This document shows positions 1,693-58,452 of a stretch of DNA of 64,000 bases, in pieces. A program made the position numbers and the translations under genes. The stretch's first letter is position 1. Each line of letters begins with the position of its first letter. Source of the DNA: Meiothermus sp. GTDB taxonomy: Bacteria; Deinococcota; Deinococci; Deinococcales; Thermaceae. Location: contig PSMF01000002.1 of assembly GCA_040290005.1 (NCBI GenBank), positions 12,542 through 76,541 on the forward strand, read 5' to 3'. The notes under the pieces were generated by a model. The model was not told the DNA's origin and ran no database searches. It saw only the letters and a list, made by a program, of their open reading frames with translations.

Positions 1693-2577
1693 TTAGCCGT
1701 TCGCATCGTTGCTCCTCAGCAGCCTGGCCTGCGCCAAAGCGAACAGCAAAGTGAGAATCAGGATGATCACCGTGAGGGCCGCGGCGTAGCCCAAGCGTCC
1801 GATCTCGAAGCCGGTTTTGTACAGGTAATAACCCAGCACCTCGGTTCCACCAAAGGGACCGCCCCTGGTGAGCAGAAACACCGCCGTGTACGACTGAAGC
1901 GTGAGCACCGTGCCGATCACCACCAGAAAGGTGATGGCCGGGCGCAACAGCGGCAGGGTGATGTGGCGAAAGATTTGTGCAGGGGTGGCCCCGTCCACCG
2001 CCGCGGCCTCGGCGAGCGCCTTGGGAATCGCCTTGAGCCGCGCCGAAACTACCAGCACGCCGTAGCCGATGTGCCGCCACAAGGTAAACAGCATGATCAG
2101 CACCAGCGCCCAGAACGCACTCTGGTCCCAGCGGGGGACCGGAAGTACTGCCGCTAGCGCACCATATTCAGGTGAAAACAGGGTGTACCACGCTACAGCC
2201 GCCCCGCCCAGCGTGACCAGCCCCGGCAGAAACAGCAGGGCTTTGATGCCCCGCTCGTAGCGCTGCCCGTCGAGGGCCAAAGCCAGCAGCACCGAGAGCA
2301 AGATGAAGGGCGGCAAGGTCATCAGGGCGAAGATGAGCGTGGTGCGCAGGCTCCGGCCAAAGTCGGGGTCTTGCAGAATTTGGCTGTAATTCTCTAAGCC
2401 GATGGGCTTGGGGGCCGAGAGCCCCGACCAGTCCCAGGTGGAGAAGCGCAGCACATCGAGAAACGGGTACAGCAAAAATAACCCCAGCAGCAGGCCTGCC
2501 GGGAGGGCAAACCACTGGGCAGATGATCGCGGGCCAAACCAGGCCCGCGTCCTAGAAGGTGGTGCGGCACGCTGCAT
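1693..2577 (-). CDS. ABC transporter permease (carbohydrate, MalF/UgpA-like)
   Basis: 294-aa multi-TM ORF with the EAA loop 'LAEAAAVDGATPAQIFRHITLPLLRP'. Confidence 0.9.
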   Translation of the reverse strand: MQRAAPPSRTRAWFGPRSSAQWFALPAGLLLGLFLLYPFLDVLRFSTWDWSGLSAPKPIGLENYSQILQDPDFGRSLRTTLIFALMTLPPFILLSVLLALALDGQRYERGIKALLFLPGLVTLGGAAVAWYTLFSPEYGALAAVLPVPRWDQSAFWALVLIMLFTLWRHIGYGVLVVSARLKAIPKALAEAAAVDGATPAQIFRHITLPLLRPAITFLVVIGTVLTLQSYTAVFLLTRGGPFGGTEVLGYYLYKTGFEIGRLGYAAALTVIILILTLLFALAQARLLRSNDANG

Positions 2578-2597
2578 AGAGGAGTTCTGGGGTCAAC

Positions 2598-3113
2598 CTA
2601 CCACAAGTACAGCACCGACAGCTTGAGCGGATAGCGGTCGGAGAGGGCCACCTCTAAGGCCACCGGGTCGAGGTAAAGCCGCCCGCCTAGACCGTAAGCC
2701 AGGTTGAATCCGGCTTCGTAACCGAGTCCCAAATAGCCAGAGATAGCCCCGCCGGGAATCTCCACCGTCGCCACTGTGCCAAGATGCGTCCCAAACACGC
2801 TGCTAAGGCTGTTATAACTCGCGTCCAGACCTAACCCCACCGAAAACGGCAGGTCGCCCAGAGTGAGCGCGGGCAATAGGTTGGCCTTGAACAAAGCCCA
2901 CACCTCAGCGCCGTTAAACGCGGTAGGAACGATCACTTCTGCATCCAAGCCGGTGTCTATACCGAGCGGGCTAAAGGGTAAGCTGGTGCTGCCCTGCAGC
3001 ACGATTCCCCTGCCAATACCAAACCCGATTCCGGCAGTGTTTTCGGGGTAGGCCGGAACCTGGGCGAAGGCCAGGCCAGCGAAGAGCGTCAGGAGTGCGA
3101 ACAGTCGTTTCAT
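2598..3113 (-). CDS. small secreted beta-barrel-like (outer-membrane type) protein, unknown function
   Basis: Signal peptide MKRLFALLTLFAGLAFAQ (ATG at 3113 chosen inside the 2598..3140 ORF). Gly/aromatic-rich alternating pattern and a C-terminal 'LSVLYLW'. Confidence 0.5.
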   Translation of the reverse strand: MKRLFALLTLFAGLAFAQVPAYPENTAGIGFGIGRGIVLQGSTSLPFSPLGIDTGLDAEVIVPTAFNGAEVWALFKANLLPALTLGDLPFSVGLGLDASYNSLSSVFGTHLGTVATVEIPGGAISGYLGLGYEAGFNLAYGLGGRLYLDPVALEVALSDRYPLKLSVLYLW

Positions 3114-3250
3114 GCGGGCCTCCAAAACCGGCCCCATCATAGCAAGGGTTTCCTGAGGCTAGAGTGTGAGACGTAACTCGCGCAGGGGCCTGGGCAAAAG
3201 CTCGAGGTACGACGTTCACTTGTCGCACCTCGCTTCTCTTGGGCAAAGCC

Positions 3251-4372
3251 CTACTTTTTAGAGTGATACTTCTTTAGGTAATCCGCCAACTTCAGGGTTT
3301 GGCCCCCGGCCAAAGCAATGGTCAAGTCATCGCCGATGTAGCCGTCCTTATTGGTGTCCTGAGTAGACCCGCTGAACTTCACGGTCTTGCCGTCCACAGT
3401 GAGGGTGCTATCGGTGAAGACGATGTAGGAGGGATTTTGCGAGAACTTGTTGGCCCCCACCATGAAGTTTAGGGTGTGCTTACCCGTACCCGTGTTCAGG
3501 GTACCGCTGAGGGTGGTTGCAGGAATCCCCCCGTACTGGCCGCATTTCGCACGGAGGACAGTGCCGGTGGTCGTCAGGTCCCAAGCGGCGGTGATGGCTT
3601 CGGTAGAAGTACTGGCGGCGATGTCGCCCTTGGTCGTTATGCTGTTGTCGCCGATGGTGGTTTCGAAGCTTTTAACGTTGAGGATGTTGGAACCATCCGC
3701 CCGTTTGAGGCTGAGTACCAGTCGTTGGCTGTCGGGTACGTCTATCACATAGCTGTTGCTGACGCACTTGCTCTTGGGGTAGCTCACCACACGGCTTAGG
3801 TCCATGATCTTGGCGCCGTCGAGTTTCAGGTAGCCGATGAGCTTGGTCGGGGCCTCAACGCCGGAGCTGGGGTCAGCGGCAGGGTGACCGGTCACAGTAG
3901 GCGAAGCCGGGGGTACGCTCGAGCCGTCCCAGTCTAAGTAAATCTCTGCAGTTTTGCCGCTGCTGGTTTTCCAAACCACGTTGTAGTCATCGCTGGCGGT
4001 AGACACACAGGTCCCAGAAGTGCAATCCCATTTACCTCTTGGCAAGGTGCTGTTGGCCTGGGCAGCTACCCCTTGAGCTCCAATCAGCCCTCCGACCTGG
4101 CTGAAAAAGTCGGGCAGGCCCAAGAAATCGGCCAGTTTGAGGGTGAAGGGTGCGTTCAAGGCGGTTAGGTAGCCCGCTATATCAGCGTTCATAGCATCCC
4201 TAACCGTGCTAGCGCTAGCGTCATAACTCTTGGTGGCTGTGCTCAAGTCAGCCTCGGCAGCGGTGGCCCCTCCAGAAGACGGAGGGTTTTGACCCCCGCC
4301 ATTGCTCGGGGCGGCCTTGTTACAAGCCACCAAGGCCAAGGCTAAAAGAGCAAAACGATAAACACGGTCCAT
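3251..4372 (-). CDS. lipoprotein, unknown function
   Basis: 373-aa ORF with an N-terminal lipobox 'LALALVAC' followed by a Gly/Ser/Pro linker. No recognisable catalytic motif. Confidence 0.6.
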   Translation of the reverse strand: MDRVYRFALLALALVACNKAAPSNGGGQNPPSSGGATAAEADLSTATKSYDASASTVRDAMNADIAGYLTALNAPFTLKLADFLGLPDFFSQVGGLIGAQGVAAQANSTLPRGKWDCTSGTCVSTASDDYNVVWKTSSGKTAEIYLDWDGSSVPPASPTVTGHPAADPSSGVEAPTKLIGYLKLDGAKIMDLSRVVSYPKSKCVSNSYVIDVPDSQRLVLSLKRADGSNILNVKSFETTIGDNSITTKGDIAASTSTEAITAAWDLTTTGTVLRAKCGQYGGIPATTLSGTLNTGTGKHTLNFMVGANKFSQNPSYIVFTDSTLTVDGKTVKFSGSTQDTNKDGYIGDDLTIALAGGQTLKLADYLKKYHSKK

Positions 4373-12443: not shown

Positions 12444-12666
12444 CCCATGCCTCCAACAGCGCCGCTTGATTTTCCTCTACCAGCCCTTGAATCTCCCTGA
12501 GCTCATTTCCCTTGAAACCGCCGCTATTCTCCAAACGCACTGGGTTCAACCAAAAATTTGCCACCGCGTCGTCCCACTCAATATGGACGTGGGGCGGTTC
12601 GCCACGGTCGCCAGAATAGAAGAAAAAACGGTAAGGGCCGATGCGGAGGACCGTAGGCATGAACAA
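12295..12666 (-). CDS. DUF4160-like small protein (long 3' tail overlapping the next gene)
   Basis: 'MPTVLRIGPYRFFFYSGDRGEPPHVHIE...FWLNPVRLENSGGF' is a DUF4160 hallmark. The frame runs on 149 nt past the ATG of the DUF2442-like gene. Confidence 0.65.
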   Translation of the reverse strand: MFMPTVLRIGPYRFFFYSGDRGEPPHVHIEWDDAVANFWLNPVRLENSGGFKGNELREIQGLVEENQAALLEAWDEFFSVCGSSGYSSNRRKRPHRRTRRWAQHFRAAGLVSAFAARLNKRAG

Positions 12667-40433: not shown

Positions 40434-40913
40434 TTGTCTTTCGCCACCGGGCGAGAGCTAGGTCTACCCCACTACCGCTTGCATCTGCTCGATTGCGGAG
40501 CCTATCTGCACGACCTGGGCAAGGTGAAGGTTCCGCTCGAGATTCTCAACAAACCTGCTAGGCTGACCCCAGAAGAGTTCGCGGTGATCCAGCGCCACCC
40601 CAGCTTCGGGCGGGAGATGCTCGAGGGGACTTGGATGAAACCCAGCGGCCTGATCGTCGAGCAGCACCACGAGCGACTCGACGGCAGCGGGTATCCCTTT
40701 GGCCTCGCTGGGGATGAAATCTTGGTGGAATCGTATATCGTCGCCGTCGCGGACACCTACGATGCCATGACCACCGACCGGCCTTACCGCAAAGCTCTAA
40801 CCCCAGAAGAGGCTTTCGCCGAGCTGAATAAATACGCCGGAACGCACCATCTAAAGGAAGTCGTCAAAGCTTTCTTCTCGGCGATTCGACAAGTGGAATC
40901 CCGTACCCTGTAA
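40434..40913 (+). CDS. HD-GYP domain protein, short (N-terminal helix with the first His absent)
   Basis: 'LHDLGKVKVP', 'HHERLDGSGYPFGL', 'VADTYDAMTTDRPYR'. The only start is TTG at 40434, in frame with and 45 nt after the HAD stop. Confidence 0.65.
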   Translation: MSFATGRELGLPHYRLHLLDCGAYLHDLGKVKVPLEILNKPARLTPEEFAVIQRHPSFGREMLEGTWMKPSGLIVEQHHERLDGSGYPFGLAGDEILVESYIVAVADTYDAMTTDRPYRKALTPEEAFAELNKYAGTHHLKEVVKAFFSAIRQVESRTL

Positions 40914-51490: not shown

Positions 51491-51515
51491 GGGGGCGCAA
51501 TCTAGGTTGCGCCCC
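51491..51515. repeat. REP-like palindrome
   Basis: 'gggggcgcaa tctag gttgcgcccc'. Confidence 0.75.
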
Positions 51516-51528
51516 TGACAGGGCTCTT

Positions 51529-51807
51529 CTAATCTTCTACGTTGAGCAGCGACTTGCTGACCACCACGGTTTTATCTTCCGAGCGGTTGGCCCAGTGCTG
51601 TAGTAGTAAGTCCCGGGCATCGCTCACCGCCTGTTGAAGACGGCCAATCTCGGTGCGCGAGAATCCCTGGTTGCTTTGTAGCGCCACCGGCTTGAGGGAG
51701 AACTTAGCGGTGTGTCCCTCGTGCTTGACATAGATGTAGGGCGACTCTTGGGTGTAGCCAGAGTTCACGTAGAAGCGGTATTGTCCAGAACGGTGCAGCG
51801 TAATCAT
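51529..51807 (-). CDS. DUF4160-like small protein (orphan, no DUF2442 partner)
   Basis: 'YRFYVNSGYTQESPYIYVKHEGHTAKFSLKPVAL..NQGF' resembles the 12295-12666 product. Confidence 0.6.
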   Translation of the reverse strand: MITLHRSGQYRFYVNSGYTQESPYIYVKHEGHTAKFSLKPVALQSNQGFSRTEIGRLQQAVSDARDLLLQHWANRSEDKTVVVSKSLLNVED

Positions 51808-52100: not shown

Positions 52101-54977
52101 TTAAATCGCGACGCAACGTGCTGCATCGCCGGTGATGCTGAACGCCGACCAGTAATAGGGGTTGGGGTGTATCTCGCGCAGGGTCTGCTGGGCCTTCCGC
52201 AGGGCCACGCCCACCGGCAAACCGGTTTGCAGGGCGCGGTAGAACTCGGCCATGAGCTGGGCGGTGGTGTCGTCTTTGACCGGCCACAAGCTGGCGACCA
52301 AACAGGGGGTGCCCGCATAGAGGAAGCCTCGAGCCAGCCCCAGCAGTTCATCCCCACCGGCCTGCTGCGACAGGCCGGTCTCACACGCCGAGAGCACCAC
52401 CAGCTCGGCCTTCAGCCGCAGTTGGTAGAGGTCTCGAGCCGCCAGCCAGCCGTCGGCGAGCCGCAACCCCGAGAACATCGGATTGTCCGGGCGGAAGGCA
52501 CCGTGGGTCGCCAGATGCAGCACCTGAGCCTGCCCGGCATGGGCGAAGAAATTCCCACTGGTGGCGGCTTCCTCGACAAATTTGTGCGCCTGGTGGGCGA
52601 TGGCGGTGATGGCCTCGACCTCGTGCAAGACCTGCGGGATGTTTTCTAGCGGCACCCCGAACGCCACCAGCGGCCCCTCGCGGTGGACGGGGCGCTGGCG
52701 GCAAAAGGCGTATACCGCCGCGCTAGGGGCTAAAGAGACCTCGGCTCGATCGAGCAGATACCCGTCCTCGCCGAGCAGTGCCGCGAAAGGAACTTTATGC
52801 AAAACCCCGTGGGGGACAAGAACCAGATTGCGGCCTGCTAGGTCTAAAGACAGGGGCTCGAGCAGGAGGCCGTGCAGTGCCTTGAGCTGTTCGTCCACCG
52901 CCTGCCGCAACACCCCTTCGCCGTAGATACGGGCAAAAACCTCGCCCCCGGCGACGCGCCCCAGGAAAAACTCCAGCCGCTCGAGCACCCCCTCAACCTG
53001 CGCCAGCTCACCTGAAAGCCGTACCGCCCTTAGCGTGGGCCCATCCAGCACAAAGGCCACCAACCCCCGCGCGGTGCTAAAGTATTCCAGCAGCACCGCC
53101 CCCGCCGGGAGTGCCGCCTGGATTTCCGTTAACTCTACCTGGAAACTTTGCGCCAGCCCGCCGTCCTGGGCGCGCTCGAGTTCACGCTGCAAGCGGGTCA
53201 CCAGGGCTTCCCCCTCGGTGATTCGGGCTCGCCAGACGGCCCTGGAGGCGTCCTCGGTTTGGGCCTCGAGGGCTAAGAAATAACCGTCCAGCTCGGCTCG
53301 GGCGCGGTCGAGGTCACACTTTAGGGTCCGGGCTTCGGCGGATTGACCCGTCTGCTCCCCCCTACCGGCCAGCAGTTCCAGCAGCGCCCGCGACTTGGCC
53401 CGCTCGGTGTAGGCGAAGGCTTCGTGGACCCGACCGCCCTCCAGCAGGAGGTCCACCAGGAGGCCGTACACGTCCAGCTTGTCGCCCAGATAGGCGGTCT
53501 TGAACTCGTCCACCGCCAGGCTGGAGCGCACCTCTTCCAGGAGTTCTATAGCCCGCTTGAAATGGGTTTCGGCCACCGGTGCCTCGGGTAGGGCGGCCCG
53601 ACCCAGCAGACCCTCGAGCTGGATGCGCAAACTGGGGAACTCCAGCCCAGCCAGGGCGGCTTGGGCCTGTTCCAGCCGGTGTCTAGCCTCGACCGGGTTG
53701 CCCAGTTCCAGCAGCGCTTCGGCCAACACGCTCAGGGCCAGCGCCCTGGCTGAGGGCATCTCGGCTAGGTTCTCGGCAGCCTTGGCGCTTTGCAGCACCG
53801 CCCCTTCGAGCTGTGGGAGCGTACCCTTGCGCCCCTCCTGCAACAGCAAGTTGGCGATATACGCTTCGACTAGGGCGGCCTGAAGTGGGTTGTCTAAGGC
53901 CCTCCAGAGGGCTTGGGCTTGGCCCAGCGTGCTGCGGGCCTCCTCGAGCTTCCCGGCCTTGGCCTGGGCTGAGCCCAGGGTCATCAGCGATTCGGCCTGT
54001 TCCAGACCCATCCCCCGGCCCGCAAACACCTCCGAGAGTTCCTGCGAGAGCCGCTCGGCCTCGCCCAACAGGTTCAAGTCCAGATACACCCTGGCCTCCT
54101 CCAGCCCCACGAAAGCCGCATCGGGATGGGTTTTCAGGTCGCCGTAGGCGGCGCGCACCCGGCTCAGCAGTTCCAGGGCATCCCGCAGGCGGCCCCCCTT
54201 ACGGCAGAGCAGCACCAGGCTGAGGCTGGTCCCGGCCACAAACTGGGTCTGAGCGTGACGGCGGAAAACCTCCAGCGCCGCCTCGAGCTGGGCTGCGGCC
54301 TCGTCAAACCGGTCCTGCTGCTGGTATAGCTGGCCCAAGTTGCTGTGGGCCTTGGCGGCCCCAGTCTCATCCCCGGCCCCCTCGAGCTGCGCCAGGGCTT
54401 GCAGAAACATCGCCTCAGCCTCGGCGATCCGTCCCATCCTGGAGTGGATGATGCCCAGGTTGATCCCCACCGTAGCCGCGTCCTGGTGCAATCCCAGCCG
54501 GACAAACGCCTCGCGCGACCACTCGGCCAGGTCCCGCGCGCCGGGCAAATCTCCCATCATGGCCAGGGCTTGTACCTGCCGCACGGCGGTCCGTGCGGCC
54601 TCTTCGGGTAGACCCAAAGCCAAAAAACCCTCTCTCGCGTTGTTGTAGTGCTCGAGCGCCGCGCTGTAGTCGCCCCCCACGGTGAGCCCTAAGGCGTAGG
54701 CCCAGGAGGCCAGCGGCCCGGCTCTGGGGTCGTCCACCCAGAGCGCGGCTTCTAAAGCCCGCGCCCCGGCGCGGCGGGCCAGGGCGATATCGGCCCCTTT
54801 GTGGCGGTCTACCTGGGCCTTGAGCGCTTCGATGAGGGTTAAGTCGGGGCGATGCTGACCAAGCAGACAGGTCCTCGCTTGGGGGTCGGTTTCCTCGAGC
54901 AGCGCCTGGGCCAAGGCCTCGGGATTCCCCGCGCCCTGTGGGTTGGGGGTCAGGGAGGTTTGCTCGGGGTTGGGCAT
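52101..54977 (-). CDS. TPR-repeat CHAT-domain (caspase-like protease) protein
   Basis: 958 aa. About 600 aa of TPR-like repeats, then a CHAT core with 'VLHLATHGAF' (His) and 'VVLSACETG' (Cys). Confidence 0.88.
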   Translation of the reverse strand: MPNPEQTSLTPNPQGAGNPEALAQALLEETDPQARTCLLGQHRPDLTLIEALKAQVDRHKGADIALARRAGARALEAALWVDDPRAGPLASWAYALGLTVGGDYSAALEHYNNAREGFLALGLPEEAARTAVRQVQALAMMGDLPGARDLAEWSREAFVRLGLHQDAATVGINLGIIHSRMGRIAEAEAMFLQALAQLEGAGDETGAAKAHSNLGQLYQQQDRFDEAAAQLEAALEVFRRHAQTQFVAGTSLSLVLLCRKGGRLRDALELLSRVRAAYGDLKTHPDAAFVGLEEARVYLDLNLLGEAERLSQELSEVFAGRGMGLEQAESLMTLGSAQAKAGKLEEARSTLGQAQALWRALDNPLQAALVEAYIANLLLQEGRKGTLPQLEGAVLQSAKAAENLAEMPSARALALSVLAEALLELGNPVEARHRLEQAQAALAGLEFPSLRIQLEGLLGRAALPEAPVAETHFKRAIELLEEVRSSLAVDEFKTAYLGDKLDVYGLLVDLLLEGGRVHEAFAYTERAKSRALLELLAGRGEQTGQSAEARTLKCDLDRARAELDGYFLALEAQTEDASRAVWRARITEGEALVTRLQRELERAQDGGLAQSFQVELTEIQAALPAGAVLLEYFSTARGLVAFVLDGPTLRAVRLSGELAQVEGVLERLEFFLGRVAGGEVFARIYGEGVLRQAVDEQLKALHGLLLEPLSLDLAGRNLVLVPHGVLHKVPFAALLGEDGYLLDRAEVSLAPSAAVYAFCRQRPVHREGPLVAFGVPLENIPQVLHEVEAITAIAHQAHKFVEEAATSGNFFAHAGQAQVLHLATHGAFRPDNPMFSGLRLADGWLAARDLYQLRLKAELVVLSACETGLSQQAGGDELLGLARGFLYAGTPCLVASLWPVKDDTTAQLMAEFYRALQTGLPVGVALRKAQQTLREIHPNPYYWSAFSITGDAARCVAI

Positions 54978-55111
54978 CGAGGCATCCTTGGGAAAACGGC
55001 GAATGGGGGGTGAGGACCCACGAATATGGCGACGAGTAAGCGGTCTACCGGAGGGCTCCTTCTATACCCCACAATACTATCGTCCAGAACAGAACTTTGT
55101 TTATCCGCCGC

Positions 55112-57091
55112 TCAGGCCGCGGGGTCTTCTAGACCCAGCTCGTTTTTGAGCCGGAGCAGGAGGTCCACCAGCTCGGGGTCAAACCTGGAGCCCGCTTCGG
55201 CCTCGATCAGCCCCAGCGTCTCCTCAAGCGAATGGGCGGGGTGACCCTCCCCCGGACGCACCCGCGAAACCAGACGCTGGGCCAATTGGAGGATGCGGGT
55301 GGCCTTAGGGATGCGCTCACCGGAAGCGGCAGGCTCCCCACTCCCGTCCCAGCGCGTGCCCATAAAGGTCAGAACCCGCGCAGCCTGATTGCGCACACCC
55401 TCGGGCAGTGAGGTCGGCACAACCTTCCCGCCCCCCTCGAGCAAAAAACAGCTCGCCATCAGCACGTCTATCTCTTCGCCCAGCAGCCCCCAGGCATAGC
55501 CTAAGCGGCGGGCGACCCGAGCCAACGGGCTATTCAGGGTGGGGAGGATGCTCTCGCGGCCCTGGGGCAAAACGAACAGCGGCGACTGGTTTTTGCGCAC
55601 CGCCTTGTCGCGGTACATGGCGTCATCCGCTTCGCGCCACAAGCCGTGCAGGTCGGAGCTGTCCTGGGGCACCGCCCAGCCCAGGCTAGCCTGGAGGTAT
55701 TCGCTGTCCGATACCCGGATTTCCTCGACCAGAGCACGATAACGCTCCGCGGTGCGGGAGGGGTTGAGGCTCTGCGGCCCCTCGATGATCAAGGCGAACT
55801 CGTCCCCCCCCAGCCGGTAGGCCCGGTCCCCAGCCCTGGCCTTAGCCCGCAGCGCCCCCCCCAGCCGCACCAGCACGTGGTCGGCGTGGACGTGGCCGTA
55901 GGTGTCGTTCATCCGCTTGAAACCGTCGAGGTCTAAGAGCACCAGCACCACCGTGCGTCCGGGGGGTTTGCTGGCGAGGTATTCCAGGTCGCGCTCGAAG
56001 GCCCGGCGGTTGCCCAACCCGGTAAGCGGGTCGGTGTAGGCAGCCCAGGCCAGCTCGCGTTGGAGTTTCCACTCGCGCCGCACCACCCCAATCGCCGCCG
56101 CCATATCGGAGAGCAGGGTCTGGGTCTGGCTATCGGGGAGCCAGTGGTGACGGGTGCTAAAGAGCATCAGGACGCTGGTCTCGTCCCGCTCGCGCTGGAT
56201 CGGCAGCAAGAACAGGCTGCGTAGCCCGGCTTTGGTGAGCTCATCGCGGTGATCGGGGTAGAGGTCGTAGCGGGGAATGCTGACCTGCTCCCCGCGCTGT
56301 GCGCGCTCGGCGAGCTGCCGGCCGATGGCGGTTTCTACCGGCAGCCCCGAGCCCCAGCCCGCCCCGGCCACGGTGTGCAGCGCACCGCCCCCGAGCACCA
56401 CCAGCCGCGCCCCTTCTGCTCCGGAGAGCCGGGTGATCTCCTCGAGGGCGTCGCCCAGCGTGACCTCCAAGGCCTGATCGCGTGGGGCGCGGAGCAGGGT
56501 GTTGATCGCCGAGAGCCACAGGGCCTGCCGCTCGGCGCTCTCGCGCAGGTGGAACTCCCGCAGGATGGGCGAGATTTGCAGCAGATACTGCGTCGCCCAC
56601 TCGGTCTCACGCTCGTCAAAGGGGTCCGAGGCCAAAAGCTGTACCACCGCCCAAACCTCGCCGTGGGCTTTGAGCGGCAGGGTGAACACCGTAGCGGGTT
56701 CTAACCCTTCCAGCCCAGGCGGCAGGCGGTCACCCAGCAGCTTGGGCAGGGGATGGGGGGCCTGGTCCAGCACCACCGGCGCGGCATCGGGCCAGCCCGA
56801 GCCCGCGTAGCCCGAGCGCAGGGTGGCCTCAGGCACGCCTTCCAGACCGCGCACCATCTCGGCGGCGATCCCCCGAGCCGCGGTCAACTGAAAGCGGCGG
56901 TGGCTGTCTTTAACCCACACCAGGGCCTGTTCAGCCCCCTTGAGACCCCCCTCGAGATGCTCCAGCACCTGCTCGTAGAGCTGCTCGCTGCCCTTCGAGG
57001 CCAGCAGGGTCTGCACCCCTTCAAGGGTCAAGTCCTCCCCCGAGGGCTGGCTCAGGCGGAGGGGACGGCGGGAGGGGTGACGGCCCGGCAC
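55112..57091 (-). CDS. GAF-domain diguanylate cyclase (GGDEF, I-site present) with a degenerate HD-GYP-like C-terminal domain
   Basis: 'DPLTGLGNRRAF', 'RAGDRAYRLGGDEFALI'. The C-terminus has 'ASCFLLEGGGK' where HDxGK is expected and 'RWDGSGEP' where HHERxDGSGYP is expected. GTG start. Confidence 0.85.
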   Translation of the reverse strand: MPGRHPSRRPLRLSQPSGEDLTLEGVQTLLASKGSEQLYEQVLEHLEGGLKGAEQALVWVKDSHRRFQLTAARGIAAEMVRGLEGVPEATLRSGYAGSGWPDAAPVVLDQAPHPLPKLLGDRLPPGLEGLEPATVFTLPLKAHGEVWAVVQLLASDPFDERETEWATQYLLQISPILREFHLRESAERQALWLSAINTLLRAPRDQALEVTLGDALEEITRLSGAEGARLVVLGGGALHTVAGAGWGSGLPVETAIGRQLAERAQRGEQVSIPRYDLYPDHRDELTKAGLRSLFLLPIQRERDETSVLMLFSTRHHWLPDSQTQTLLSDMAAAIGVVRREWKLQRELAWAAYTDPLTGLGNRRAFERDLEYLASKPPGRTVVLVLLDLDGFKRMNDTYGHVHADHVLVRLGGALRAKARAGDRAYRLGGDEFALIIEGPQSLNPSRTAERYRALVEEIRVSDSEYLQASLGWAVPQDSSDLHGLWREADDAMYRDKAVRKNQSPLFVLPQGRESILPTLNSPLARVARRLGYAWGLLGEEIDVLMASCFLLEGGGKVVPTSLPEGVRNQAARVLTFMGTRWDGSGEPAASGERIPKATRILQLAQRLVSRVRPGEGHPAHSLEETLGLIEAEAGSRFDPELVDLLLRLKNELGLEDPAA

Positions 57092-57101
57092 AAATACGCC
57101 C

Positions 57102-57479
57102 CTACAGCCCCAGGTCTACCGGTGATACCACAAACCGTTCGGTTCCCAGCTCGAGTTCAAGGCCAAAACTCCCGCTCAGCAGAGTGGGCAGCCGAAACAT
57201 GCCGGAAGACTGTAGTGGGGCCGTCTCTAAACGTTCCCCCCCAGCTCCCAGCAGGTGAACCGCGCCCGTAGAACGCTCTACCGTACCCACCACCTTGCCC
57301 AGCAGCAAAGAATACCCGGCCTCCGGCTTGAGGCTCAAATCAAGATAGCAACTGCCCACGCTGTACAGCTTATTCCATCCCCCATTAAATCCCTGATGGC
57401 GAAGTGAAGACCCCGCCTGGCGTGAACCTACTAGCAGAATGGCTTTGCCTGAAATAGCCTGCGCCGTCGGTTGCGACAT
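57102..57479 (-). CDS. small hypothetical protein, paralog A
   Basis: 125 aa. 'WNKLYSVGSCYLDLSLKPEAGYSLLLGKVV' aligns with paralog B. Confidence 0.65.
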   Translation of the reverse strand: MSQPTAQAISGKAILLVGSRQAGSSLRHQGFNGGWNKLYSVGSCYLDLSLKPEAGYSLLLGKVVGTVERSTGAVHLLGAGGERLETAPLQSSGMFRLPTLLSGSFGLELELGTERFVVSPVDLGL

Positions 57480-57487
57480 AATGCTTT

Positions 57488-57862
57488 TTAAAACACCTCA
57501 AGCCCGTCCAGCTTGAATGTTTCGCTCCCTAGGTTAAATTCCAGTGAGCAGTCCCCCTTGGTTTTTAGCTCGAGGCGAAACCCGCCGTATTCATTAACCA
57601 TCCCCGTGGCGAGGGTATCGCCTTCCCCTCCACGTAAGGTTAGGCTGCGCACCTTGGGCAGCTTGGATTCGGCGATCACCTGCCCCAGCAAAACCGCTCC
57701 GTTCCCCTCGGACTTGAGGGAAAGGTCCAGATAAACTCCCCCGGCCTTGTAGAGCTTAGACCACGATGAGCTAAAGCTGGAACTGCGGACCCCACTGGGG
57801 GTGCTGCGCGAGTCCATGATGAGGATCGCCTCTTTGCTGTAGGAAGCCACGCCTCTTGGCAT
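57488..57862 (-). CDS. small hypothetical protein, paralog B
   Basis: ATG at 57862 was chosen by alignment with paralog A. 'WSKLYKAGGVYLDLSLKSEGNGAVLLGQVI'. Confidence 0.65.
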   Translation of the reverse strand: MPRGVASYSKEAILIMDSRSTPSGVRSSSFSSSWSKLYKAGGVYLDLSLKSEGNGAVLLGQVIAESKLPKVRSLTLRGGEGDTLATGMVNEYGGFRLELKTKGDCSLEFNLGSETFKLDGLEVF

Positions 57863-58195
57863 AGCTAACTCACGCTCCCAATGTTTCCCAGGCACTCGCA
57901 CGACGTGATTCTCGACTCTTTCACTATGCACCATCCTTAGGGGGACTCCAGGGACTACTTTCCAACTGCCAGGATAGGAGGCGGAAAGACTCTCAAGGGG
58001 CGCAAATGACCGTTACGTACTGGTCAAATATCTTAATCAAAAAGGGGGCGCGGATGTCAATTAGCTGACGCGTTACCTAGGATTTATGGCTTCTGCTTCG
58101 GCTTATCAGAGGTAACGTGACCAAGTTATAAAAATACGCGGTTACAGCTCACAACTTTTTTACGGTCTTACGCAACTCCTTCGCAATTGCAGCTC

Positions 58196-58216
58196 AATGC
58201 AGTCCAGGACTGCATT
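58196..58216. promoter_or_regulatory. perfect 21-bp palindrome in an AT-richer 500-bp non-coding region
   Basis: 'AATGCAGTCC A GGACTGCATT'. Nearby are three GGTAACG-type boxes (58063-58080, 58109-58123, 58134-58148). Confidence 0.45.
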
Positions 58217-58318
58217 CTTATAGATTGGTCTAACTGTAGGTTATTTGGACGTGGGACCAAGGGGGCTCGAGCACGGACGAGGTGCGGCCACTAGATTTCC
58301 GGCGAAAGTCCGGGTTAA

Positions 58319-58403
58319 CCTCACCCTGGCCCTCCCCACAAAACGGGAAGGGGGCAGGGTTCAGTCTTCCCTCCGCTTATGGGGGAGTTAGAGCGGGGTG
58401 AAG
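58319..58403. repeat. G-tract family element
   Basis: 'cctcaccctggccctcccc acaaaac gggaagggggcagggt ... gggggagttagagcggggtgaagg'. Confidence 0.65.
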
Positions 58404-58452
58404 GCTGCATCAGGACGACGAATCTCGTTTACTTTCGCCGGAGGTCTGCTGA

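Follow-up and report, generated by a model that had tools for sequence, protein, structure and literature searches.

A four-gene Thermaceae locus encoding a TPR-CHAT protease, a GGDEF cyclase and two small proteins, apparently derived from a widespread sigma factor cassette

To our knowledge, only two sigma/anti-sigma switches controlled by a TPR-CHAT protease have been characterized, Craspase and DdvA, and both are tied to phage defence. In the type III-E Craspase, Csx29 cleaves Csx30, an inhibitor of an extracytoplasmic function (ECF)-like sigma factor (PMC10028731). In the DdvS/DdvA pair of Myxococcus xanthus, the ECF sigma factor is partnered by a transmembrane zinc anti-sigma factor that carries a periplasmic TPR-CHAT domain, and DdvA is described as the sole characterized anti-sigma factor with such a domain (PMC11506125). 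Here we analysed a four-gene locus in a 64,000-nucleotide stretch of the genome of a Meiothermus sp. (contig PSMF01000002.1 of assembly GCA_040290005.1, forward-strand positions 12,542 to 76,541), which we call the window and in whose numbering its features are given. The locus encodes two small paralogous proteins, a GGDEF cyclase and a TPR-CHAT protease, and with high confidence it appears to be derived from a widespread cassette of sigma factor, CHAT, small-protein (X), S8 and HD-GYP genes. The fuller reading that we favour, tentatively and at somewhat short of an even chance, is that it is a Thermaceae-specific, sigma-less derivative of that cassette, in which proteolysis would control cyclic di-GMP (c-di-GMP), the main bacterial lifestyle signal, by way of the X proteins. 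Our confidence in that specific direction of control, with proteolysis upstream of c-di-GMP, is low.

The four open reading frames (ORFs) occupy positions 52101-57862, all on the minus strand, in the transcription order smallA (57862..57488, 124 aa), smallB (57479..57102, 125 aa), the cyclase gene (57091..55112, 659 aa) and the TPR-CHAT gene (54977..52101, 958 aa). The intergenic gaps are 8, 10 and 134 nt, and the upstream noncoding stretch (57935-58430) has a GC content of 0.52, compared with 0.657 for the four genes. No membrane-like segment was seen in any of the four proteins. An earlier note, made from the letters of the sequence and a list of its ORFs, had described four co-directional genes with these gaps behind an AT-richer leader, encoding two paralogs of ~125 aa without a recognizable domain, a cyclase with an intact GGDEF motif, an RxxD I-site, two GAF regions and a degenerate HD-GYP tail, and a 958-aa TPR protein with a CHAT domain in which the His of HLATHG and the Cys of LSACETG are intact. 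Against the ORF coordinates, base composition, domain profiles, motif positions and alignments reported here, that description was correct in every checked detail.

Pfam recognized TPR families and CHAT in the largest protein, with a CHAT score (PF12770) of 222.5 bits (E=1e-65; cutoff 24). The HLATHG and LSACETG motifs lie at residues 821-826 and 862-868, so that the predicted catalytic dyad region, from H825 to C865, is encoded at 52374..52517 on the minus strand, and H825, G826 and C865 are invariant columns across 15 orthologs. An AlphaFold2 model of this caspase-like protease had a predicted local distance difference test (pLDDT) score of 87, and its best folds in a Foldseek search were separase (E=6e-17), Csx29 (E=7e-16) and DdvA (E=2e-14), giving the predicted structure a TPR-CHAT fold of the separase/craspase type. 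Csx29 was also the top curated family match of the window protease, with a score of 55.6 bits against the NF041237 cutoff of 300, below what membership of that family demands.

Small-protein, GGDEF and CHAT genes were found together in eight Thermaceae versions of the locus, namely, the window and the loci designated L001, L002-type, L006, L008, L015, L016 and L017 (the L001 contig ends before CHAT). The CHAT protein is 72% identical to that of the window in L002-L004, which have the order small-(extra ORF)-small-GGDEF-CHAT, 66% identical in L006 and 57% identical in L008 (both small-GGDEF-CHAT), 57-58% identical in L015 and L016 (one or two small genes, then GGDEF-CHAT) and 58% identical in L017, from Meiothermus hypogaeus, which has the order S8-small-small-GGDEF-CHAT. 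The four-gene set is kept in every Thermaceae locus with enough flanking sequence, including loci with other flanking genes: the upstream flank is HxlR/PriA in the window, Suf/Rieske in L002 and another in L006, and in L008 both flanks differ. Because the set recurs where the upstream flank or both flanks differ, we regard the unit as real and the association as far beyond chance. The earlier note had offered a lack of co-conservation in related genomes as grounds for abandoning the module, and the genes proved to be co-conserved in Thermaceae.

It is extremely improbable, in our estimation, that the four genes are mere neighbours by recent common descent with independent functions. All of the cyclase-containing loci do come from the single family Thermaceae, and the downstream DUF4160 and SDR genes are also syntenic in close relatives, as such an account would have it. 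However, the set persists amid changed surroundings (window, L002, L006, L008 and L015-L017), its first three genes are separated by only 8 and 10 nt, all versions have a common leader motif ahead of the first gene, and the X and CHAT genes are linked across at least eight phyla. As a separate observation, L002 (7957-8451), like L003, L004 and L005, has an extra ORF of 164 aa between its two small-protein genes, where the window has the 8-nt gap; its product has a lipoprotein-like N terminus (…LVPVSPAAC…) and no Pfam match.

To see the wider context of the protease we used the 80 best loci that carry TPR-CHAT relatives, drawn from a collection in which each GTDB species has one genome; with the CHAT alignment as the query, 572 relatives had been confirmed by tblastn among the first 600 pattern matches. 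Across nearly their whole length, the CHAT proteins of these 80 loci share 31-58% identity with that of the window. Domain hidden Markov models (HMMs) were built from sampled members, which were checked by Pfam and NCBIfam, and were then run over all loci; both databases confirmed each cassette part on the sampled members. On the same strand as CHAT we found an X-domain ORF in 72 of the 80 loci, an ECF-type sigma factor gene in 67 (TIGR02937 above cutoff on sampled members), a Peptidase_S8 gene in 66 and a full HD-GYP gene in 45. A GGDEF gene was present in only 3 of the 80, all of Thermaceae type. The commonest order, sigma-CHAT-X-S8-HDGYP, accounted for 33 loci, mostly from Acidobacteriota, and sigma-X-CHAT-S8 accounted for 10 (Chloroflexota, Pyrinomonadaceae, Rubrobacter and others); several of the incomplete cassettes end at contig ends. 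The junctions between genes often overlap or span 3-4 nt. X lies between sigma and CHAT in 13 loci, 3-5 nt upstream of CHAT where this was checked (L029, L030 and L052). By a crude test, 69 of 75 S8 proteins have signal-like N termini.

Judged by domain content, the widespread cassette brings together an ECF sigma factor, a TPR-CHAT protein, a soluble zinc-anti-sigma-like protein that ends in the X domain, a secreted S8 subtilase and, in many loci, an HD-GYP c-di-GMP phosphodiesterase encoded on its own. The window has the full-length TPR-CHAT relative and, 2 kb upstream on the same strand, two X genes. The remainder is missing: the cassette-sigma HMM found no match anywhere in the 64-kb window, nor was there an S8 match in it, and the only HD-GYP sequence in the gene set is the dead tail of the cyclase, described below. 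L017 retains S8. Other Deinococcota appear to bridge the cassette and the window, since the Trueperaceae loci L018 and L010 have the order (lipoprotein) S8-X(131 aa)-CHAT-(REC-PAS-HD-GYP) and Meiothermus hypogaeus L017 combines S8 with the Thermaceae set.

The small proteins themselves are paralogs (38% identity across 110 aa, E=1e-20), and neither matched Pfam, NCBIfam or PADLOC above threshold, with sub-threshold CarboxypepD_reg or Ig-like matches at most. A word-indexed protein search recovered 3 homologs of smallB, or 16 when it was run with a profile. An exhaustive profile HMM search of 1.84 billion cluster representatives gave 217 matches to the small-protein family at an E value of ≤0.001, of which ~90 are stand-alone proteins of 105-145 aa with the pattern ..A.L.M[DE]S....VRS.....W..LY....Y.D........L.GQ......G.F.L; smallA matches the family HMM at E=2.6e-37. 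No member of the small-protein family belongs to a Pfam family (a sub-threshold CarboxypepD_reg match occurs in 18 of 80), and a PDB sequence search with a profile of 80 X-domain proteins returned nothing at an E value of ≤1. By these searches the small proteins are a real family that has no relative in Pfam, NCBIfam, PADLOC or the PDB. Predicting their structure, as the earlier note had proposed, gave a confident model: AlphaFold2 made smallB an all-beta sandwich (mean pLDDT, 85), with a low-confidence loop at residues 21-34 that contains the nearly invariant R27, and a Foldseek search of the PDB with this model returned generic Ig-like sandwiches alone (E values of 0.018 or higher). Since the database and PDB searches yielded nothing but such generic matches, we rejected any specific functional transfer to the small proteins.

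Two gene starts deserve comment. The public gene call for smallB (P0002; 57102-57479) is an 85-aa truncation from an internal Met, and homolog alignments indicate that the real product has all 125 aa and, with them, the conserved N-terminal strand and the VRS loop. A longer alternative ORF for smallA begins at 57934; the same kind of alignment favours the start at 57862. In a number of giant proteins of 1,000-6,800 aa (for example, P0129, P0130 and P0137), 4-19 stretches per protein match the small-protein profile in its C-terminal half. We set these aside as unspecific, because they match the generic beta-sandwich half alone; their repeated matches suggest that this half resembles a common repeated Ig-like module.

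What ties the small proteins to anti-sigma factors is the form that the X domain takes elsewhere. In most TPR-CHAT loci the small-protein HMM match sits within a protein of 200-260 aa, as its C-terminal half, and such long-form X proteins are found outside Deinococcota. In 59 of 68 long X proteins the N-terminal half carries the motif H-x3-4-C-xx-C; one of them reaches Pfam zf-HC2, and matches to RsrA- or RseA-like families are weak. Only 1 of the 68 has a hydrophobic segment, and that one is borderline (Kyte-Doolittle [KD] value 1.67; threshold 1.6), which argues that the long X proteins are soluble. The short and long forms share L15, [MF]17, [ED]18, S19, V26, R27, S28, L38, Y39, D47, G61, Q62 and F95, with R27 present in 91% of the short forms and 99% of the long ones, and the motif [FM]-[DE]-S-x6-G-V-R-S is common to both. 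SmallA has this motif (MDS...GVRS) just as the anti-sigma-like long forms do. Both window proteins start at the X domain, and the zinc anti-sigma head, H-x3-C-xx-C, is not present in them. Given that the long forms elsewhere have the X domain as their C-terminal half, we infer that each small protein of the window is the tail of an anti-sigma-like protein, orphaned from its head.

Some X-domain genes have no CHAT gene nearby (L011, 7787-8146; L014, 2208-2567; L012, 5007-7447; L013, 5949-8354), being either solitary next to MazG/NUDIX genes or placed around or behind an S8 gene. The order in L013 is X-S8-X, and the S8 protein there bears ricin-type lectin domains.

The company of S8 genes raises the question of whether the X proteins are mainly S8 partners, acting, for example, as a cytoplasmic chaperone or inhibitor of the proprotease or as a co-secreted factor, with the window copies being leftovers from the loss of S8 that have no tie to the cyclase or CHAT. 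Pairs of S8 and X genes without CHAT that overlap or lie 10 nt apart (L012 and L013) would fit this idea, as would the direct adjacency of X and S8 in the commonest cassette order and the S8 gene that immediately precedes X in L017 and L018. Nevertheless, we consider it decidedly unlikely. The S8 proteins have signal-like N termini, whereas the X proteins have no signal or membrane segment, so that the mature proteins should reside in different compartments; moreover, X is retained, duplicated and well conserved in the Thermaceae loci that lack S8, and it stands between sigma and CHAT in the 13 loci noted above.

The cyclase probably carries a second trace of the cassette. Its GGDEF domain scored 115.9 bits against PF00990 (E=2e-33; cutoff, 23.8) and 111.5 bits against TIGR00254 (cutoff, 37.4), and two GAF regions (GAF and GAF_2) occupy residues 35-176 and 208-336. 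The I-site RAGD (residues 419-422) is separated by five residues, as in the canonical I-site, from the active-site motif GGDEF (residues 428-432; the two are encoded at 55796..55837, minus strand), and by these motifs the cyclase looks active. The tail is a different matter. Its 154 residues (506-659, encoded at 55115..55576 on the minus strand) align along the entire HD-GYP domain, with ~50 middle residues deleted and all metal ligands replaced: HD has become EG, HHE has become MGT, GYP has become GEP, and D..DA is lost. Only profile positions 96-170 of 170 of HD_5 (PF13487) are matched, so the tail is not a complete active HD-GYP domain and is, to all appearances from its sequence, dead. Its best match outside Thermaceae is the HD-GYP protein of the Trueperaceae cassette (L018; E=4e-7), compared with E=3.3 for the window's other HD-GYP. 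This difference suggests an origin of the tail in the cassette's phosphodiesterase, of which it is probably a relic, fused to a GAF-GGDEF cyclase. Relative to canonical GGDEF cyclases with an I-site and GAF sensors, the window protein is alike in domains, motif and I-site but differs in its C-terminal, internally deleted, ligand-less HD-GYP domain and in its setting between X-domain genes and a TPR-CHAT gene.

A second c-di-GMP gene is present in L018, where a PAS-GGDEF-EAL gene (2402-4255, minus strand) is divergent from the S8-X-CHAT-HD-GYP cassette. Descent of the window cyclase from this gene was considered and found to be unsupported, the similarity being a generic 32% inside the GGDEF domain. 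The window's other HD-GYP ORF (40434-40913, plus strand), ~12 kb from the locus, matches HD_5 at E=2.9e-33 with HHE, GYP and D..DA intact; it starts within the HD-GYP domain (profile positions 29-165), and the real gene is possibly longer or truncated.

The likeliest mechanism for the full cassette is one drawn by analogy with Csx29, Csx30 and their sigma factor. A cytoplasmic TPR-CHAT protein would sense a signal through its TPR solenoid and would cleave or capture the anti-sigma-like protein, the exposed conserved loop [FM]-[DE]-S-x6-G-V-R-S being the candidate cleavage site; once freed, the sigma factor would activate the genes of the secreted protease and the phosphodiesterase. In the window, where the sigma-binding head is gone, the interaction of the protease with the X domain would act after translation, and the X proteins would regulate the GAF-GGDEF cyclase by being cleaved or titrated, such that proteolysis would control c-di-GMP and not the reverse. 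We propose the X proteins as protease partners that modulate the cyclase because X and CHAT persist, and X is duplicated, where sigma, the zinc head and S8 have gone. The comparison across loci points to a switch of the protease/anti-sigma type, with the c-di-GMP enzymes as its output or feedback arm.

Several points weigh against this favoured reading. The direction of control is drawn by analogy, and PDB sequence and fold searches detected no similarity between the X domain and Csx30 or any solved structure. Most acidobacterial long forms fall below the Pfam zf-HC2 threshold, so that their assignment as anti-sigma factors rests on the motif and the gene context. CHAT is not an obligatory partner of X, since X genes occur with no CHAT inside 8 kb, right after S8 in L012 and L013 and alone in L011 and L014. 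The case for loss as the origin of the sigma-less form is one of parsimony across phyla rather than of a rooted tree.

The polarity could also be reversed, with X a securin-like pseudosubstrate that holds TPR-CHAT inactive and the substrates, for example the cyclase or unrelated proteins of the cell, elsewhere. Separase is a eukaryotic protein that functions in the cell cycle. The window protease resembles it in combining a helical-repeat solenoid with a caspase-like domain and, in prospect, in regulation by a partner protein, and separase is the closest structural match of the TPR-CHAT model (E=6e-17); securin inhibits separase as a pseudosubstrate (PMC11506125). The conserved acidic-Ser...Arg-Ser loop of the X proteins and the tight coupling of X and CHAT genes, which fits a stoichiometric complex, are in keeping with this idea. 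Securin and X show no homology, and the sequence identity of the protease to separase is only ~12%. A securin-like role would fit all the observations but one, leaving unexplained the fusion of X to an anti-sigma-type head next to sigma in most lineages. We judge such a role unlikely.

The earlier note had gone beyond description and read the placing of a cyclic-dinucleotide synthase next to a TPR-CHAT protease as a signal-activated proteolytic switch for defence, development or stress. As a module the genes held up, being a co-conserved unit in Thermaceae; the proposed switch gained no positive support. For the GGDEF product, c-di-GMP or another cyclic dinucleotide, to activate a TPR-CHAT effector in defence or abortive infection now seems to us very unlikely, even though every Thermaceae version keeps the cyclase and protease genes side by side, the GGDEF motif and I-site are intact, c-di-GMP enzymes recur near the cassette in other lineages, and a preprint describes CHAT proteases as nucleotide-triggered effectors in some type III systems of clustered regularly interspaced short palindromic repeats (CRISPR) (bioRxiv 10.1101/2023.06.23.546230). 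Pfam found TPR and CHAT alone in the CHAT protein, with no PilZ, SAVED, CARF or other recognizable nucleotide-sensor domain. PADLOC gave the protein only weak, generic BovA/TPR matches (E=1.4e-6 and weaker) and the other three proteins none. The cyclase is present in 3 of the best 80 loci versus 45 for a phosphodiesterase, which has the opposite activity. Finally, no CRISPR-like direct repeats were found in 40000-64000, and the chromosomal position of the locus is stable among close relatives. In its lack of both a sensor domain and a defence match the window differs from nucleotide-activated CHAT effectors, such as those of cyclic-oligonucleotide-based antiphage signalling systems (CBASS) and the SAVED-CHAT and CARF-CHAT proteins of type III CRISPR.

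How, then, does the locus compare with the described systems? Protease-gated signalling of the sigma/anti-sigma type built on TPR-CHAT is a known kind, of which the window would be, by analogy, a reduced form rewired to c-di-GMP. With the type III-E Craspase the cassette shares a cytoplasmic TPR-CHAT protein encoded beside an ECF-type sigma factor and a soluble protein, inhibition and cleavage having been demonstrated in the Craspase (PMC10028731). It adds a secreted S8 protease and c-di-GMP enzymes, and the window version has neither sigma factor nor sigma-binding head. Cas7-11, CRISPR RNA (crRNA) and a CRISPR array (direct repeats were sought in 40000-64000) are likewise missing from the window, and no resemblance of the X domain to Csx30 or Csx31 emerged from sequence and fold searches of the PDB, which includes a Csx30 complex (8eey). 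DdvA shares the zinc anti-sigma motif, the ECF sigma factor and the TPR-CHAT module, with a fold match at E=2e-14 and a template modelling (TM) score of about 0.5; it differs in joining the anti-sigma head and TPR-CHAT in one membrane protein whose incomplete active site faces the periplasm, whereas the proteins here are separate, soluble and, as predicted, cytoplasmic, and the anti-sigma-like protein has a beta-sandwich domain of its own. A conventional pair of ECF sigma factor and zinc anti-sigma factor is not what the window holds, because it has neither an adjacent sigma gene nor an H-x3-C-xx-C head.

A broader possibility, which we find rather doubtful, is that the cassette constitutes a CRISPR-independent, "craspase-like" switch in which TPR-CHAT cleaves a soluble zinc anti-sigma factor, at a conserved loop ahead of its beta-sandwich X domain, and frees an ECF sigma factor for expression of the subtilase and the phosphodiesterase. 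Soil Acidobacteriota would be the main hosts of this switch, with at least seven further phyla, and the Thermaceae form would have been rewired, its X-only proteins linking the protease directly to the cyclase and so placing c-di-GMP synthesis under proteolytic control. This family of TPR-CHAT proteins could be the stock from which the Csx29/sigma arm of type III-E was recruited. A stand-alone cassette probably runs on the same protease/sigma logic. Nearly all of the best 80 loci have the cassette, and its ties to a secreted protease and to c-di-GMP turnover offer a testable route to the roles of CHAT proteins outside CRISPR, to their substrates and to how proteolysis might be wired to c-di-GMP. 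The comparison also assigns a context to an orphan family, made up of ~90 clusters of stand-alone proteins of ~105-145 aa together with the C-terminal domains of the long forms. In full-text literature we found no description of CHAT with zf-HC2, with a diguanylate cyclase and HD-GYP, or with a sigma factor and a subtilisin. CHAT goes unmentioned in the main text of the ECF re-classification paper, but the ECF Hub may still list the sigma group of the cassette.

Upstream of smallA lies a conserved noncoding leader of ~300 nt (57863..58165, minus strand). DNA alignments of the window, L001, L002 and L006 showed it to be more conserved than expected for noncoding DNA, with long invariant blocks, four of which contain GTTAC or GTAAC. 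The core motif, the 18-mer ACGTAACGGTCATTTGCG (58001..58018, minus strand), is followed ~30 nt on by CTATCCTG, a possible -10 element. L001-L006 carry the 18-mer without mismatch, and it occurs once in the window; eight of eight aligned Thermaceae leaders have at least its shorter core, A[CA]GTAACGGT[CT]A. In L017 the core is located upstream of the S8 gene, which is the first gene of the operon there. Rfam gave no match to the leader at an E value of ≤1, and its RNAalifold consensus was weak (-16 kcal/mol, with little covariation); for these reasons we rejected a riboswitch and consider protein-binding DNA sites likelier than a structured RNA. The leader is probably a set of putative operator or activator sites for a DNA-binding protein.

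We found no support for the leader motif as the promoter of the cassette's ECF sigma factor, since the regions upstream of acidobacterial sigma genes are enriched for TGTGGAA and CTCTACGACC, not for GTAACGG. In 60 such regions, of ~400 nt each (L019-L094), TGTGGAA, TGGGAAG, [AG]CTCTAC and TACGACC are enriched 8- to 11-fold, and these words are candidates for an autoregulated ECF promoter of the cassette.

The neighbouring ORFs of the four-gene set in the window encode a DUF4160 protein, an SDR protein, HxlR and PriA. The DUF4160 gene (51529..51807, minus strand; Pfam E=1.9e-9) starts 293 nt downstream of CHAT and is kept in L002-L004 and L006 but is missing in L008; the downstream SDR gene is also syntenic in close relatives. 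The first strong terminator-like site past the gene set comes right after DUF4160, a hairpin at 51515..51492 (51492..51515, minus strand) with a 9-bp stem, including 7 GC pairs, that is followed by TTGTTTT, and no comparable site was found between CHAT and DUF4160. The DUF4160 gene is possibly on the same transcript as the four-gene set, and it is outside the wider cassette.

Finally, genes of an oligopeptide-type ATP-binding cassette (ABC) transporter were seen just upstream of two acidobacterial cassettes (L021, 2382-6163; L023, 1783-3566). The SBP_bac_5 binding protein of L021 was confirmed by Pfam, and two ORFs farther upstream there have hydrophobic N termini; in L023 the assignment was made by eye from the N termini of the ORFs, one with an ABC ATPase-like start and the other hydrophobic and permease-like. 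These transporter genes hint at a protein-to-peptide nutrition theme for the secreted S8 protease.

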